From an uncultured Verrucomicrobiae bacterium (GTDB lineage Bacteria; Verrucomicrobiota; Verrucomicrobiia; Limisphaerales; Palsa-1400), in NCBI GenBank assembly GCA_963702845.1, contig OY969763.1, positions 96,001 through 160,000 on the forward strand: a DNA stretch of 64,000 nt, read 5' to 3'. How positions within the stretch are numbered: position 1 is the stretch's first letter; every line of letters begins with the position of its first letter. Shown piece after piece: positions 39,001-45,000 of the stretch. Position numbers: made by a program.

Positions 39001-42000
39001 TTTCCAATGTGAGAAGGACATCGATAATTATCTAGGCATTGAATACGACGTGATCGGGATCGAGGAGGCAACGACGTTGTCGAAGCGGAAGCATGACGAT
39101 ATTTCGACGTGCTGCCGGTCATCGAAGATTTTGCCGGACGGCACGACGTGGCGTCCGCGGATTTATTCGACGACGAATCCGGGCGGGGTAGGGCACGCTT
39201 GGTATCGAGCGATGTTTATTGTGCCGTTCCAGGATGAGAAGGAGAGCGATACGCGATTTATTCCGGCGCGCGTTGAAGATAACAAGTTCAACAATCCGGA
39301 TTATCGCAAGAGGCTGGAGGGTTTGGCCGACGGTTGGCAAAAGCGCGCCTGGCTGCACGGTGATTGGGACATTGCGGCAGGGCAATTCTTCACGACGTTT
39401 CGACGCGATGTGCACGTCATCGAGGATTTTGATGACACGCGCGCAATGGAGTGGTTCGCCGCGCTCGACTACGGGTTCAATCATTACACGGTGGTGTTGC
39501 TCGGGTGCCGCGATGGCGATGGCAACGTTTTTATCGTGGATGAACATGCGGAGCGGATGTGGGTTCCGCAGCGGCACGCGCAGGCGATCCGCACGATGTT
39601 GGCGCGGCACAAAACAAATCAGGGTTGCACGTTGCACTTGCTGGATTTGAAACAGGTTGTTGCCGGCGCGGATGTGTTCAGTCGACAGAGCGACGGCACT
39701 ACGATCGCGGCGCAATATGAGCGGCTGGGGGTGAAGCTTTCGCAAGCGAACATGGACCGGGTAAATGGATGGGCGGAGGTGCTGCACCTGTTAGGTGACA
39801 CGGCGAATAATATTAAGCCGAAGTTGTTTATTCATCGGCGGTGTGCGCGGTTGGTCGAGTGTTTGCCGGCGTTGCAGCACGATCCGAAGCGTCCTGAGGA
39901 TGTTTACAAAGTTGACGCCGAGGATGGAATCGGCGGCGACGATGCGGCGGATGCTCTTCGGTATATGGTCGCGACGAAGTCGCGCGAGTGTTTTGTGCGG
40001 AAGTTGAGGGGACTCTAAGAAAGGCTGAAGGATGAAGGGCTTTGCCCCGCTTTTGGTCGAGCCCATTGTTAGGCACTACTGCCTCGGACTTTGAAGAAGC
40101 CCCACTTCATACCAAGGCCGATAGCAGCGACGAAGGAAAGTGCCGCGCAGGGAAAAATATTTTGGATCAACTGGAACGTGCGAAGTTCCTTGAGCGACGC
40201 ATACCGAACGGAGCCATGGCTTACTACCACTTTCTCGGTCAGGCCCAAAGTCTCGTCTGGAGCCTTCGGGAGATGAACGAAGTAATATTGGTCTATAAAC
40301 ACAGCTGCTCCCACGAAGATGAAAAAAAATCCAAGGAGAACCCCAAGCAATGTTTTGCGAAACCTATTCATGATTCATCACCACCTAGACAATTTATATC
40401 CGACAACTGTTCGCAGATTTTGAATCAGCCAACAAGGGTTTTATGGCGGCTTCTTTAAGAGAGGCCGGAGTCCAGAGGTTGCAAATCTCTGGCGCGGAGG
40501 TTTGGAGGCGGCGTGAGTCTCCAAAGCGAATGGCTCGCGCCTGGGCGGACGCGAGGCAAAACGGGTTATCGGGGACTGGCCGCGCAGGTTTGCGGCTTCG
40601 CGTCGCGATCGGCGGTGTAGATGAGAGGCTGGCCGCAGGCGTGGCAGGTTTTCCAATAGGTGCCGGCGTCGCGGTCTTTCTGACTTCGGCAATACCAGCG
40701 GATGCCGCATTGGGCGTGTTCGTCGGGCGTGCGGTATTTGTTCGCACAGGCGCGCTGAAAGCGGCGGTGATTCTTCGCGATTTCCTCCTCGGCGTTGCGC
40801 TTCTCGCGCTGGATTTTGGCGAGGATCTTCGCGGCTTGTTTGACTTCCCGTTCGTGTTGTTCGGCGGCGCGTTGGGCTTCGCACTTCGCGGTGTCGGCCG
40901 CAACGGCGGCGGCTTCGAACGGCATGAGAGATTGTTGGTTCATGAATGGAGTTCGGTGTGGATGAGGTCTGCGAGGTAATGCGCTTGTTTGGGCAAGCCA
41001 CGAATGTTCCAACGTTTCAGAACGGCTGCGCGTTGCTCCGGCCTGAGCAAGAGGAGCTGGCGGCGCGCTCTGCGCCACGTCTGCGCGGTTTGGTTTCTCC
41101 AGCGTTGCACCATTTCGACGGTTTCTTGGTCAAGGCGATCAATGCGTTGGTGTGCCGTCTCGGTCGGTGCGAGTTCTGGAAAAAGACAGACGGCATCGGT
41201 CTGGCGCTGGAGGGCGCGACTTGCGGCGGCGATGCGTCGTCCCGAAACAGGGCGGCGCGCTGCTTTCATGTGCTTGTCGAATCTCATGGCTCGATCCTCG
41301 TCGGGTGGATGGCTCCCGCCCTGGGCGGACGGGAACCAAGTGGGAACTAGGCTGTGGCTGCCTCTACTTCGATGGGCGGGTGTGCCTCGTGGATGAGCTC
41401 CAGCTTGCGGTCCGTGGCCATCACTTTCGCGAGGCCCGAAGCGCGGCGGAAGTCGTAGACACCGTAAACTGTGTTGATTGGCTGGCCGTGCTCGTCACCG
41501 AGATAAACTGACCAGCGCTGAACGTCTGCGCCGGTCTTGTCTTTGCTCTGTTCCGGTCCCCGGAAGAAGACGGCTCTCCATGCCTGACTGGTTGACTGTG
41601 CGATCCGGTTCATGAGCCCTGGCGTTTCAGTGTTTTGTTTTTTGGTATTTGTTTTCATGTTCTTTTTTTTGACTGCTCTGCTGTGCGCTCTCGGACTGTC
41701 GCCCTTCATCCGAAAAAGCGCGTGCAGGCAGCGGCGGACGGCGGGAGTAGTCTTCAGAGGGCACCGCGAGATCCCCCTGCTGAAGCGCGCCGGTGAGGGC
41801 GATTGGTCGAGTGGCCAGCAGAGGGTGAAAAGGAACCAGAATTCTTTTTAGGGCTCAGGGGAATGGCGAGCGCCGACTGAGCGCGTTAGTCAAATGCGAC
41901 TCCGCCTAACTTCTTTCAAGCTGCGGAGTGGAGGCGTGGCGTGAAGAATGCAAAACGGATTGGCGCGCGCACTGCAGGCCGATGGTGGGGAAGATCGGCC

Positions 42001-45000
42001 GACCGCATGTGAGCGTGCCGAGCCGTTTTCCCTGCGTGGCATAAGGCAATATTGTGCGACAAATCCGGTTCGCATCAGTGGGTCTCGCGGGTCCCGCTGT
42101 TGCGATGCGTTATTTCGCAACGGATTTTCTGCACAATGTTTCTTATGTCTTAGCAGTGGTTCGCAAGGCAGACGCCCAGACGCGCAGTTTCGAGCATCGT
42201 AGCGTCTGCCGATTTCTTCATGACATGCCTGAACGGAGCTTAGCAGTTTCTCGCGGGGTCGCATCAACACGGGCTCGCGGCGGCCGCGATCTCTGACGTG
42301 TGCGCGGAAGCTGAGGATGTCGCCGGCGTTCGTATGGGGACGGGGCGAACGGGAAGGCGATACCGCAGGCTTTTGCGCAGAGGTCAGACTGAAGTTGGGG
42401 GCGACAGTGAGTGCGGCAAATTCAGTGGAGGCCCAGACACGCAGCTCGCGAGTATCGTAGCCGGAACTGAATTGGCCGCTCTCACCGAGCTGGGGCTGTT
42501 TTGCCAGTCTCCACAGATTTGAAACGTCGGAACGGAGGCGTTAGCACGCGGCCACGAAATGGAGGCGTGATGGAAGCGGAGTTGTTCGCTGACACGCGCC
42601 GCAATGTAGCGGAGTGGAGCGTTTTTAATTTGTGGAGTCTGGCTCTTCGGGGCTGCGCAAGGGTGAGGACAACGACGGTGCTTGCACGATGGAGCGACAT
42701 CGGCAGCGACAGTCGAGTCGATGGCGTCACTCTTGTGCGGCAGGGGCTACTTGTGAAAGGCAGGGTTTTTTAGTTTGATTCGTCCGAGAACATTGGACCG
42801 GGCCATATTGTTCTCATTGTAAAATGACAGTTCCAATGTCTCTTCGTTCGTAGGGCATTCTGGCCAGGTGATGGCAACGATGCCCGGATGGTTCAGCCAT
42901 CGCCAAGCATGCAATTTCCAAGCGGCCATTATTGTGTAGGGCTCCCCGGGATCCTGGACGGCACACCATGTCCGGCGAGAGCGATCGGGCTCGTATGGAT
43001 TTTCGCTGAACCAAAACACTGCCTCACCCGGGCCCGTATGGAATGGAATCGTATTCGTTTGCATGAAGAGTCGTGGGAAAACTTTCGAGCTCAAGAGGCT
43101 CAGCTTTTGCAAGGCGCGCTTTGCTGGGTTTTGGTTCAGCCACATTTGACTGCGGACGTCGTATGTCGCCTCTATTAGTTTGAGCGTCGGTCCGTTAGGG
43201 ATCGTGATCGTTACCTGGTTAAGTTGAGTTAACCACAACAGAGCAGCGATTCCCACGGCGAGGGCGCAAATAGCCACCAGAGTAAATTGGGTTTTGCGCC
43301 GCATGAAAGGAGGTTGGCAGAACAGGGAAAGAGTTCAAGCCGGTGACTAGGTTTAGTCGGAGAACTGGAATTTGAAACGGCTAAGCGGTGGCTTGTCACC
43401 GCGTGCCAGAGCGAGACTGCGTTGGGTTGGTGGGCGTCTTTGGGTTGTATTTGTTTTTGGGGCGAGCTGGGAAGCGAGGGGGTTCTTTTGGGCTCGCGTG
43501 GCGCGCGTTCAGTATGCCGGGGAGGGGGCGAACCTGTGGCTAGTCGCGAGGAGCGGTGCCCCCTCCCCCGCTGCTAGACGTCGCCCGCTTTTAGCGGAAC
43601 TGCGACGTTACCAGCGGGGGAGGGGGCGCGGGTTGGTGGGGGGCCCCGCGACGAGGCGGGCAATGCGCGGGCGGCGCGAGGGGGAAATGGGCGGGTGCCG
43701 CCGGCGTGCGGCGGGGAAATCAGTAGGACGTAGCGAGAAGGGAAACAGGGCGAGCGGAGTTCCGTTCAACCCTCTGAGCCTGGCGAACAAATGTTGTCTT
43801 TAATGCTGCGGAGGACCAACTGGCGTTGCTTGCTCTGTTTGAACCGTCTGACGCTGGCGCTTCGCATTCTTCAGTGCATACATGATCGCATAGACTAGCC
43901 ATGGCCACGTCAACAGCGCCTCCCATCCAGGAAAGGGATTGCGGATGGTGAACAACCCCATTACCCAAGTGCGAATGATGATCGTAAACGCAGCCGCGAT
44001 GGTGAATGCACCGGTCTGGTAGTTGCCTTTCGTTCCTCGTTTTAGCAGGACGCGTCCTAGTAAACAAAGTGCTCCTACGATTACGTCCCAGAAGGTTCCC
44101 CAGAGGAGGGCTCTTACGTTTCGAGCGTCGCCACGTCGTTGAAATTCCGAAATGAGTAACAGATTGAGCAGTGCGGCTGCCCAATAAACGACTGTGAGGA
44201 TTGCCAGGGAAATTGACACTGGCTTCCACCGCAGAAAGGATCTCACCTCAGTATTCATAAGTACAACTTGGCGCGGCTGAAGGTAGCCAGCTGAGAAAGC
44301 GATGACAACGCCAACCTGCTAGCTTATGTGAATTGGCCAACTGAAATCGTGCGGAGCACTGCTGCCGAGTCTGCGAGGCGGCAAAGAGGGTGGTTGGAAT
44401 ACGGTCGCGCTGGGCGACTAACGCCGCCGCGAACGATACCGCCACGGCTGACGCGAACGGGGAAAATACCGGGACCAACCCATAACCACGATGAACACCC
44501 ACAGAGTACTGCGCCCACCACGGTAACCGCGGCACGCACCACTGAGGCGACCCGCACGACATCCAGAACTGAACTGGCTTATGAACACCATCATTATAAA
44601 ACCGCAACACCGAACCACGAAACCCGACTAGCGCCTGTTTTATTTTTTGTATTTTTTTCATCACATTGACTTTGAAAAAAATCAAAAAATAAAACTGGTG
44701 CGGTAGATCGCGGGAACCAACGTCGACAACCCTGCGCTCCAGTCGCGAGCATCAAAACAATTATATGGATCTCTGACTTCCAGACGGCGAAGGCTAAGCG
44801 GTGTGCAGACGGATCAGCAGCAGGTGTGACAGGGCACTGACTGACTAAATCAAAAATCAATTATCTCAGTGCCCTGGCGCATCTGCTGCCCGGCTGCACA
44901 GCGCGTGCCGGATGGGCGTTGGACGAGTTGAGGTGTTGAGAAGCGCAATTGATATTGTGCGTGCGAAGCGTGGGACGTTGGACAATCCGCGACGTTGGGT

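Follow-up and report, generated by a model that had tools for sequence, protein, structure and literature searches.

The window, the 64,000-nt stretch of DNA analysed here, contains a phage-like element of ~22 kb. The element encodes an integrase, a primase/helicase, TerS, TerL, portal, scaffold, major capsid protein, and head-tail adaptor. The TerS gene (37995–38606) lies directly upstream of the gene for the large terminase subunit, TerL (38603–40018, + strand; Pfam Terminase_6N, 4e-05; PHROG 979, 2.1e-24). The portal gene (45950–47557, +) is followed by the scaffold (47570–48367) and major capsid protein (48425–49435) genes, and the head-tail adaptor gene (50980–51564) lies 3′ of the latter. 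This block matches PHROG 145 (8.5e-121), 206, 247, and 477. The element's right end carries the integrase (52972–54000, −; Pfam Phage_integrase, 2.4e-09) and a tRNA-Thr (54163–54238, −; ARAGORN and Rfam tRNA), beyond which host genes follow (sigma factor, ABC transporters). No recognizable tail genes were found in the window's element. An initial annotation had called five elements of this genome tailless, a description that holds for this one and is not supported for the other four.

Between the DNA-packaging (TerS–TerL) and portal genes lies a conserved, covarying, non-coding core of ~845 nt (41897–42741, +). The initial annotation had placed a structured RNA at 41700–42760; the conserved core within that interval starts at 41897, and 41700–41748 falls outside any conserved element. 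The RNA measures ~850 nt in the window copy and 0.85–1.1 kb across the family. Its upstream gene in the window is divergent, and an ORF downstream (42747–43304, −) is convergent. The RNA is tied to no single neighbour: variable cargo directly adjoins it, and the flanking ORFs differ by locus and may be convergent or divergent.

A blastn search of window positions 40000–46000 against the genome, together with a five-way alignment, recovered the five copies reported before. These are the window copy (c1; C1 ~137896–138745, +) and those at ~1719689–1720550 (+), ~4830666–4831573 (+), ~4292158–4293000 (−), and ~2245071–2245890 (−). A decayed fragment is also present at 397.9–398.0 kb. At all five copies, a TerL homolog precedes the RNA by 0.4–2.6 kb on its strand and a block of capsid genes follows it, and the genome has five capsid gene sets, as many as RNA copies. 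Two further TerL homologs (2.81 Mb and 6.00 Mb) had no RNA copy by blastn.

The core folds into five domains. Domain A (41897–42261, +) is the universally conserved 5′ domain and is closed by helix P1 (41897–41906/42252–42261). Inside it are helices H1 (41934–41948/42214–42228), H2–H3 (41964–41973/42008–42017), and H4–H5 (42033–42057/42131–42154), and an optional hairpin module (42164–42209), all on the + strand. We recounted its covariation on a structure-blind MAFFT alignment independent of the earlier one and obtained nearly identical values. The alignment has 85 distinct sequences; at its 44 pairs, 3717 cells are 94.5% paired, and 32 of the pairs show double changes. Covariation scores 0.457, compared with 0.172 in shuffles (0/500, a count that is not a probability because related sequences share ancestry, as with the shuffle counts below) and 0.04–0.10 when the pairing is slid. 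P1 occurs as at least eight different complementary sequence pairs, as read from the duplex list. An unbiased all-against-all scan of column pairs retrieves H1, H3, and H4/5.

Four hairpin domains follow, all on the + strand. Domain B is a branched hairpin (42292–42388, closed by 42292–42303/42377–42388). Its 58 sequences and 36 pairs are 87.6% paired, with double changes at 33 pairs and a covariation score of 0.522 against 0.182 shuffled (0/200) and 0.08–0.14 slid. The outer helix alone shows double changes at 11/11 pairs and is 97.2% paired. Domain C, a long hairpin (42401–42487), is the weakest (38 sequences, 24 pairs, 79.5% paired; 0.446 against 0.197, 0/200). In the five-way alignment the window copy of domain C differs in type from the other four, and it carries a second CAGnnnCGCAG..CGAGnAUCGU module at 42434–42458. 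Domain D (42503–42643) is a long-range helix of ~21 bp (42505–42528/42619–42641) with a variable tip, which in the window copy holds the inserted motif GCGUUAGCACGCGGCCAC. It comprises 68 sequences and 29 pairs (87.8% paired; 0.451 against 0.190, 0/200). Domain E is a 3′ hairpin (42652–42741, helix 42652–42676/42717–42741) with 26 sequences and 33 pairs (91.9% paired; 0.464 against 0.158, 0/200; slid 0.04–0.07). It is found in part of the family only; most other members stop near profile position 755–780 and have a different 3′ part.

Covariation support thus spans domains A to E and the closing helix P1, every domain scoring well beyond its shuffled and slid controls, and the long helices of all five are kept through compensatory changes in alignments made from sequence only. 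The architecture is a universal, P1-closed 5′ domain followed by four hairpin domains that tolerate swaps, duplication of the B–C part, and loop insertions. The B–C part is tandemly duplicated in many members (seen as overlapping profile hits), and small insertions occupy differing loop positions in different genome copies. A crude column-pair scan gave no convincing pseudoknot.

A further conserved element, U, lies upstream of the core (41749–41834, ~85 nt, +) and carries the motifs GUCUUCAGAGGGCACC...GGUGAGGGCGAU...GCAGAGGGUGAAAAGGAACCAGAA. A 20-locus nhmmer profile matched 48 of 106 family loci; among the stretches around the five genome copies it matched c1 and c5. Nearly all hits (50/52) are on the sense strand, mostly 22–150 nt 5′ of the core. 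The sequence of U is conserved with little covariation, and its predicted pairs change on one side only. It is missing at loci where the TerL stop codon is ~50 nt from P1. U is a separate, optional part, distinct from the core, and may either belong to the transcript as an optional 5′ segment or be a promoter-proximal element.

The fold belongs to the strand of the terminase and portal genes, as proposed initially, because G-U cells outnumber A-C cells 675 to 181 over all domains. By domain, the G-U and A-C counts are 378 and 47 for A, 105 and 54 for B, 129 and 32 for D, and 24 and 11 for E; domain C (39 and 37) gives no strand signal. On the opposite strand, 85.6% of domain A cells would pair. 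A rhizosphere metatranscriptome yielded one 223-nt contig, 93% identical to the element and mapping onto 42031–42211 at a depth of 2.5, and no real pieces on TerL or portal. This RNA-library contig comes from a relative, other than the window strain, and could be contaminating DNA. One of 22 sequencing runs listed was RNA, and none held half or more of the element's words. Next to the RNA, neither a sigma-70-like promoter (0 sites) nor an intrinsic terminator was found; terminator-like sites numbered eight against 7.8 expected, with none at the ends. Strand asymmetry, gene orientation, and the single 223-nt, depth-2.5 contig together suggest that the element is an RNA.

More than 100 relatives occur in Verrucomicrobiota genomes and IMG/VR contigs, and the non-redundant family set holds 101 sequences. 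In the sampled order the RNA is present in 24 of 401 genomes, or 23 of the 400 others, identical to the count given before. Searches with nhmmer found 41 loci in this sample and IMG/VR, and placed the RNA in 65 of 85 pattern-selected GTDB contigs. Several copies per genome are found, with five here and eight RNA-bearing contigs in one metagenome-assembled genome. Among 44 further portal-bearing genomes missed by blastn, a more sensitive covariance model of 99 positions detected the RNA in 21; 16 of these 21 have a match 5′ of portal on the same contig and strand. The 23 of 57 other portal-bearing genomes with no RNA match are not evidence of absence, because many portals lie at contig ends, and relatives without the RNA may exist. 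At the gathering score, no Rfam family other than tRNA-Thr was found in the window. Rfam 15 gave nothing relevant in 40000–46000 at E<=10, and Rfam searches nothing in 10 further family loci, which upholds the claimed absence from that database. The literature searched yielded no published description.

Synteny around the RNA is frequent. In GTDB loci of at least 13 kb, TerS/TerL and/or portal flank it on the same strand in 26 of 33, with both in 23, and 11 of 13 IMG/VR contigs have both TerL and portal. TerL homologs lie upstream in most loci, the nearest at ~50 nt, and portal homologs 0.14–5.7 kb downstream (at least 0.7 kb in all but one), all on the RNA's strand. Directly 5′ of the portal gene, a promoter-like motif, AAAAAnCCGTGCTAnnnT, is conserved in many loci and suggests that the head genes have their own start. 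In the remaining seven of the 33 long loci, the RNA has neither TerL nor portal within 6–7 kb. There, an apparently intact copy has host genes around it or lies in an island that carries integrase, Fic, HipA-like, or restriction genes. The terminase–portal setting proposed initially is therefore common, not universal. The seven loci weaken a strict role with the element's own packaging motor, and the idea of a packaging RNA loses ground.

That idea draws on the phi29-type pRNA (RF00044), a phage RNA working with portal and packaging ATPase. The parallel is one of position only, the RNA gene here lying between the packaging ATPase (TerL) and portal. The pRNA is ~120–174 nt long, its Rfam model does not match here, and phi29-like phages have a terminal protein and no TerS, whereas the elements here carry a classical TerS/TerL pair and the RNA occurs without TerL or portal in the seven loci above. 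For the host element, capsid-forming phage-inducible chromosomal islands (cf-PICIs) are a possible model. They share its gene set, lack of recognizable tail genes, and integration beside a tRNA. The two differ in host phylum and in size (~22 kb here, roughly 10–15 kb in cf-PICIs). We know of no large RNA in cf-PICIs.

The initial annotation likened the RNA to GOLLD and ROOL, which holds for size and kind; neither covariance model matches, and the RNA lies away from tRNA islands. GOLLD (RF01998) is described as an ornate phage and prophage RNA of >800 nt with no established function, no known dedicated protein partner gene, and one universally conserved and one less conserved part (PMC12286853). 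The RNA here is similar in its length (~850–1100 nt), its phage-like carriers, and its universal 5′ and variable 3′ domains. It differs in that the GOLLD model has no match even at E<=10, the conserved part is 3′ in GOLLD and 5′ here, the hosts are Verrucomicrobiota, and its place is fixed between TerL and portal. GOLLD is often near tRNA islands, whereas 41 loci here (11–17 kb) hold four tRNA/tmRNA genes, each single. GOLLD is known to form nanocages and to be expressed more strongly at lysis. ROOL (RF03087) is a large, highly structured prophage and phage RNA for which neither a protein partner nor a function is known (PMC12286853, PMC5737381). Its model does not match, its genomic setting is another, it has multiple pseudoknots where our scan found none convincing, and it is shorter than the RNA here. 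Fremin et al. 2023 (PMC10690425) likewise mined IMG/VR by covariation for structured RNA candidates, some near terminase genes. As far as that study's description was available, its candidates average 67 nt, the 14 terminase-linked ones are placed upstream of a large terminase gene, and no ~1-kb RNA between TerL and portal is described; single hairpins of the RNA could be among the candidates.

We estimate at about 80% the probability that this is a previously unknown large ornate RNA, carried by mobile elements and acting in trans, like GOLLD and ROOL in kind and a member of neither. Instead, it could belong to the late (morphogenesis) mRNA as a cis-acting part that ends, insulates, stabilizes, or processes the TerS–TerL transcript, or that allows RNA polymerase to pass the variable cargo on its way to the head genes, as in processive antitermination. 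The RNA is always sense behind TerL, with variable cargo directly beside it, and starts just past the TerL match (at −50 to −57 nt in six loci, within 150 nt in 11); these loci have no terminator-like hairpin plus U-run between TerL and the RNA. However, 0.85–1.1 kb with five covarying domains is far above known cis elements such as put RNAs and EAR (~70–120 nt). The downstream genes also vary and are convergent in the window, portal is directly preceded by AAAAAnCCGTGCTAnnnT in many loci, and seven loci have no morphogenesis genes nearby. We consider a cis-acting role improbable.

Covariation alone cannot separate RNA from single-stranded DNA, and the fold could belong to a structured origin or a packaging or initiation signal active on an exposed + strand. 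DNA hairpins tolerate G-T wobbles, and packaging recognition sites are common near terminase genes. Such a signal is nonetheless very unlikely, as TerS/TerL, portal, and an HK97-like capsid form a double-stranded DNA packaging set, and both the G-U excess and the conservation of purine-rich internal loops are features typical of RNA. The folded strand is also the transcribed sense strand of the flanking operon, and one RNA-library contig maps onto the element. To our knowledge, an 850-nt, five-domain single-stranded DNA signal has no precedent. Modular build, the B–C duplication, copy-specific loop insertions, multiple copies per genome, and unrelated genomic settings would fit an RNA element that is mobile but non-autonomous, or that processes itself (such as an intron-like ribozyme with no ORF or a trans-mobilized retroelement RNA), and that has a preferred site behind TerL. 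We give this reading very little weight: no group I or group II intron or ribozyme model matches, no reverse transcriptase or homing endonuclease adjoins, TerL and portal are intact around an intergenic RNA, and copies equal host elements in number. A protein-coding or decayed gene is contradicted and can practically be dismissed. Open frames of 74–126 aa cross the region on both strands, and the median length of each member's longest open stretch is 194 aa, compared with 146 aa after mononucleotide shuffling. Variation, however, is flat by codon phase without a period-3 pattern (power rank 161 of 418), and pairwise comparison of the five copies gives 220 indels, of which 190 break the frame (30 are multiples of 3). 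Substitutions are compensatory across helices, and the 126-aa ORF (41890–42270) has no Pfam, PHROG, or PADLOC match.

As a trans-acting RNA, the element would be transcribed in the direction of the TerS–TerL genes. Some loci, with the TerL stop codon only ~50 nt away, would use read-through from TerL; others, such as the window with its divergent upstream gene, would use the RNA's own promoter. The transcript would act as a folded RNA in trans rather than as a regulator of its neighbours. Tentatively, and well short of even odds, it may form a structural RNA particle or RNP at induction of the element, which would help to assemble heads or package DNA, or compete with a helper phage. Almost as probable is a decoy or anti-defence RNA directed at host or helper machinery, and less so a cis-acting operon element; we leave the remainder without a mechanism. 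The proposal of a new structured RNA class stands as to structure, non-coding character, sense strand, more than 100 variants, and absence from Rfam 15, with its RNA nature inferred. We take the carriers to be integrative phage-like elements of Verrucomicrobiota, most of which encode a capsid but no tail. With this previously uncatalogued family, the few very large RNAs of bacteria and phages without an assigned job likely gain one more.

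The window houses an integrated phage-like element, and the candidate RNA lies in the gap between its TerL and portal genes. The recognizable genes run from RusA (from 32259), with an exonuclease alongside, through a primase/helicase (36859-37884) and TerS (37995-38606) to TerL (38603-40018; 471 aa, intact). TerL is followed by 5.9 kb of small ORFs in both orientations, and this is the gap in which the RNA is located. The portal gene (45950-47557; 535 aa, intact) is then followed by a scaffold, the major capsid protein (MCP), a structural protein and a head-tail adaptor. ORFs without assignment occupy about 1.4 kb between the adaptor and the minus-strand integrase (52972-54000) at the right end, and a tRNA-Thr (54163-54238) closes the element, with host genes beyond. 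No exact repeat of at least 12 nt of the tRNA-Thr region was found within 20000-53000, so the left end was left undefined. The window's element has the gene set of a capsid-forming satellite: integrase, replication, TerS/TerL, portal, capsid and connector, with no recognizable tail genes. The initial annotation called all five elements of this genome tailless, which we can state for this one only. A capsid-forming satellite of this kind (cf-PICI-like) would depend on a helper phage for tails and induction.

The cargo of the gap is largely anonymous. None of the 11 ORFs between TerL and portal had a PADLOC match, and ten scanned against Pfam and PHROG gave no assignment except one weak, sub-threshold match of ORF 40940-41287 to DUF6079 (Pfam; E 5.9e-4). 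These blanks do not refute the idea that the gap may be a defence hotspot. Just after TerL, a sequence of about 55 nt (40384-40444) has some 20 further copies in the genome at 78-87% identity on both strands and is a dispersed short repeat. Nearer the portal, two long near-perfect hairpins (44626-44705 and 44795-44907) have miRNA-precursor-like Rfam matches at E 0.01-0.1, far below thresholds, and the region 44339-45147 is 91.5% identical to the element of copy 4 of the RNA.

Blastn of 40000-46000 against the genome and a five-way alignment recover five copies of the RNA, the number first described. Each has a TerL homolog 0.4-2.6 kb upstream (74% identical, or 100% in the case of the window's gene) and precedes one of the genome's five capsid gene sets. 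The borders proposed initially, 41700-42760, enclose a real stretch but are too wide. All five copies share about 41896-42745; 41700-41890 is common to three copies only and runs on into a divergent minus-strand gene region, so the core starts at 41897 and extends to 42741. Within it the copies differ by domain swaps and by hairpin-sized insertions at differing places, and domain C of copy 1, the window's own, is of another type. The divergent intergenic stretch before the RNA (41625-41716; TTTTCATGTTCTTTTTTTTGACTGCTCTGCTGTGCGCTCTCGGACTGTCGCCCTTCATCCGA) is identical in copies 1, 4 and 5 despite differing flanks, which suggests a common control region that serves the minus-strand gene 41347-41656/41709 and possibly the RNA as well. 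Elsewhere on the same contig (C1), a decayed sixth element at 396.8-398.9 kb retains two C-terminal fragments of TerL (398728-398931 and 397789-397917), 106 nt from the 5' end of the RNA (397910-398015) and, at 92% identity, a counterpart of the minus-strand ORF 42747-43304. Two further TerL homologs, at C1 2814202-2815581(-) (67% identity) and 6002578-6004122(-) (55-65%, in two parts), lack both an RNA copy by blastn and a capsid gene of this type, and may represent related elements without the RNA.

The RNA has a conserved non-coding fold of five domains on the sense strand. Alignments were sequence-based (MAFFT) and built independently of the earlier ones. Since whole-RNA RNAalifold on the profile alignment lost most variable helices, each domain was analyzed on its own. 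For domain A (41897-42261), which comprises the closing helix P1 and helices H1-H5, a plain MAFFT alignment of 85 distinct sequences gave a consensus of 44 pairs, 32 of them with compensatory double changes, and 94.5% of 3717 cells were paired. Covariation was 0.457 against 0.172 in shuffles (0 of 500 reached the observed value) and 0.04-0.10 in slid registers, re-deriving the compensatory helices first reported for this domain; here and in the other domains the shuffle tests are inflated by relatedness of the sequences. Single pairs interchange freely (GC 45 / CG 35; AU 39 / CG 34; CG 38 / GC 19 / AU 19). P1 (41897-41906 with 42252-42261) occurs as at least eight different complementary sequence pairs by our own reading of duplex predictions, which over-extend helices and were used just for the diversity of the core helix sequences.

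The same pattern holds in the remaining domains, with none of 200 shuffles reaching the observed value in any of them. Domain B (42292-42388; 58 sequences, 36 pairs, 87.6% paired) scored 0.522 against 0.182, and domain D (42503-42643; 68 sequences, 29 pairs, 87.8% paired) 0.451 against 0.190. Domain C (42401-42487; 38 sequences, 24 pairs, 79.5% paired), at 0.446 against 0.197, is weak, and domain E (42652-42741; 26 sequences, 33 pairs, 91.9% paired), at 0.464 against 0.158, is found in only about a quarter of the family. Slid registers fell far below the observed covariation in all four. An all-against-all column scan of the structure-blind profile alignment recovered H1, H3, H4/5, the outer B helix and the long D helix, along with one extra run that is probably spurious. 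No convincing pseudoknot appeared in this crude column-pair scan, the profile alignment being poor in loops.

Several readings of such a stretch other than a structured RNA were weighed. One is a structured single-stranded DNA signal. Across all five domains the predicted pairs include 675 G-U cells against 181 A-C cells, and reading domain A on the opposite strand lowers the share of paired cells from 94.5% to 85.6%. The fold thus belongs to the strand of TerL and portal, as first claimed. A DNA signal is a minor alternative. Another is a coding gene. Long open frames do exist (median 194 aa; shuffles, 146 aa), which a G+C content of 60% would lead one to expect, and they are not conserved in frame. 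Variation has no codon phase (entropy by phase 1.007, 0.986 and 1.025; period-3 power rank 161 of 418), and 30 of 220 indels in pairwise comparisons of the five copies are divisible by three. We give this reading, too, little weight. An intron-like mobile RNA would likewise be a minor possibility: group I and group II introns and small ribozymes gave no Rfam match, TerL and portal are intact, and the neighbors have no reverse transcriptase or homing-endonuclease domain. The stretch itself has the general marks of a structured non-coding RNA: compensatory pairs above controls, on one strand and with no coding signal.

Known families do not account for it. At gathering score, cmscan with Rfam 15 found only tRNA in the whole window, and at E<=10 the 40000-46000 region gave just weak miRNA-like hairpins elsewhere and CcsR1 (E 7.8). 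Ten other loci of the family had no Rfam match either, in line with the absence from Rfam first reported. The phi29 pRNA was rejected, as RF00044 was unmatched, the length is about 845 nt against about 120-174 nt, and the element has a TerS/TerL system. To our knowledge, very few bacterial or phage RNA classes near 1 kb with conserved architecture: rRNA, group II introns, OLE, GOLLD, ROOL and HEARO. The Rfam 15 covariance models of GOLLD, ROOL, OLE, HEARO and raiA were not matched. The RNA resembles GOLLD and ROOL in kind and belongs to neither family. Like them it is encoded in phage-related DNA, here flanked by TerS, TerL, portal, scaffold and MCP. GOLLD and ROOL often lie beside tRNA islands, whereas ARAGORN found no tRNA cluster in 41 family loci of 11-17 kb, only three single tRNAs and one tmRNA. 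Self-assembly into homo-oligomeric nanocages is a GOLLD and ROOL trait. The cryo-EM work on GOLLD, ROOL and OLE reports that such RNAs can form RNA-only cages (PMC12286853). Full-text literature searches turned up neither an RNA described from between terminase and portal genes nor a large Verrucomicrobial RNA. In the nearest published work, a screen of IMG/VR for candidate structured RNAs, motifs average 67 nt (PMC10690425); pieces of the RNA may be listed among those candidates.

The family is much larger than the five copies. In the order sample the RNA stretch matches 24 of 401 genomes, or 23 of 400 other Limisphaerales genomes, a count identical to the initial one. A portal-guided search of IMG/VR yielded 12 loci, and 13 IMG/VR contigs carry the RNA. 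A broad 15-base pattern scan of IMG/VR was far too unspecific, with 119 stretches of which six loci are real by nhmmer (five by the first profile; one, L136, is just 615 nt; two duplicate portal loci). A degenerate pattern from the alignment hit 85 GTDB contigs, 65 of them real by nhmmer, with record titles mostly of Verrucomicrobiota, Limisphaerales or 'subdivision 3'; nhmmer marked the other 20, mostly non-Verrucomicrobial records, as chance matches. Once contained duplicates were removed, 101 sequences were left. In some members, profile positions ~356-605 are matched twice, which indicates a tandemly duplicated B-C part. One MAG (contig prefix CAZDOO01) holds eight RNA contigs (L192, L208, L211, L212, L214, L217, L224 and L234); together with the five copies here, this implies that such elements accumulate in one host.

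Inheritance of the RNA follows a particular TerL/portal lineage of integrative elements, with one copy per element. Among 33 GTDB loci of at least 13 kb, 26 have TerS/TerL upstream and/or portal downstream on the strand of the RNA, with both TerL and portal in 23 of the 26. Both also occur in 11 of the 13 IMG/VR contigs, upholding the original placement between terminase and portal in viral contigs. The distance to the TerL match goes down to about 50 nt, that to the portal start is 0.14-5.7 kb (at least 0.7 kb in all but one), and both flanks of the RNA are occupied by small, unrelated ORFs of either orientation. Of the 401 order genomes, 58 have portal homologs. A 99-position covariance model found the RNA in 21 of 44 portal-bearing genomes missed by blastn, in 16 of them upstream of the portal on the same contig and strand; in the other 23, without a match, the portal is often at a contig end.

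The RNA tolerates modular change at its periphery and survives also in islands that lack capsid genes. In seven long loci (L163, L173, L193, L216, L221, L225 and L229), neither TerL nor portal lies within 6-7 kb. Their neighbors are either host genes (MnmG and PGI; LpxC and CvpA; an aminotransferase) or island genes (an integrase with DUF3854, Fic, a HipA-like kinase and a Type ISP restriction enzyme), and tRNA-Glu, tRNA-Phe or tmRNA lies near three of them. Their RNA copies are apparently intact, with profile coverage as full as in other members.

Additional pieces accompany the core. Upstream element U, about 85 nt long (41749-41834 in the window) and located by fuzzy matching, precedes the core in 48 of the 106 family loci and in copies 1 and 5 of this genome, almost always in sense. 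Its predicted pairs vary on one side only; it may be structured RNA, a leader or a site of control at the DNA level. In loci where TerL abuts the RNA, its place is taken by a G+C-rich hairpin with GCGCAG and CGAGCAU as its frame. Of 75 long members, 34 carry between one and three copies of a small module with the same frame, CAGnnnCGCAG-loop-CGAGnAUCGU, never antisense; the window's copy has two. A 12-mer, GCRCRCGGCCAC, usually extended to GYGTTAGCACRCGGCCAC, lies at window positions 31857, 32174, 42544 and 47690 (+), four sites against 0.1 expected. It occurs 35 times in the genome. Four of the five elements account for 18 sites, all in the orientation of the element genes; some are inside the portal and scaffold genes, and others are present as insertions that differ in loop position among the RNA copies. 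A tandem pair lies at C1 5414974/5414994. Present in only 6 of 75 long family RNAs, it is lineage-specific and may act as a binding site or represent a small mobile insert. A G-rich region of about 350 nt (43372-43760, +; 65-70% G+C), with a long inverted repeat (43551-43634) and three copies of GGGGAGGGGGCG, two direct and one inverted, is conserved 3' of the RNA in all five copies and abuts it directly in copy 5. Its 143-aa ORF is doubtful, as tblastn did not find it in copy 2. We considered the region as a second domain or partner and rejected it as part of the family, since it is confined to this genome and one close relative (3 of 106 loci).

Expression data were sparse. None of 22 sequencing runs contained half or more of the sampled words; the one RNA library, a rhizosphere metatranscriptome, had 6%, and the DNA runs compared contained relatives only. 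Across 38600-47600 the only genuine match from that library was a 223-nt contig of depth 2.5, which covers 42031-42211 with 12 differences. All else was low-complexity matches of 35 nt, and the uncovered parts carry no information. Metatranscriptome libraries can contain contaminating DNA, and contigs show neither strand nor ends. The 223-nt contig is a hint of expression, no proof. Consensus scans found no promoter next to the RNA and no terminator at its borders. Taken as a whole, the original observation is confirmed and extended, with its borders corrected; the new large structured RNA family it proposed is well supported in sequence and structure and unproven as a transcript and in function.

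The RNA would be transcribed together with or just after TerS-TerL, and would act in trans, either as a folded RNA or as an RNP. The constant position next to the packaging genes favors a part in making the element's particles or in conflict with a helper phage, our leading if tentative reading (probability about 0.3). The capsid-less islands and cargo-rich flanks favor instead a role aimed at host or helper factors for which the element's own motor is not needed, which we consider possible though doubtful. A cis-acting element of the operon is unlikely, and the rest of our expectation goes to something unforeseen. In many loci (for example L171, L200, L215, L223 and L226) the portal start is preceded, at a distance of about 20-170 nt, by a conserved promoter-like motif, AAAAAnCCGTGCTAnnnT, which has a CGTCAA box about 100 nt upstream; the window's own copy (45780-45950) is less clear. 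The motif suggests a separate transcription start for the head genes, which would probably make them independent of transcription through the RNA. It is quite improbable that the RNA is a large self-assembling part, alone or as an RNP, of the particle-making of tailless capsid-forming satellites, working at the terminase-portal step or by hijacking a helper phage.

If this last reading proves true, the RNA would be the first RNA cofactor of TerS/TerL-type packaging and a new ornate RNA architecture, and the RNA-only islands would be hitch-hikers reaching the capsids of relatives through the RNA. For the RNA-cage field, a further, unrelated large RNA family would be a new fold to solve. More than 100 natural variants, a constant position within a defined class of mobile element and five copies in one complete genome are assets for functional tests, and the elements around the RNA are open to induction or deletion, which would allow a direct test of function. 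The RNA would be the first large RNA linked to the phage-like elements or satellites of Verrucomicrobia, mobile elements that have barely been studied.
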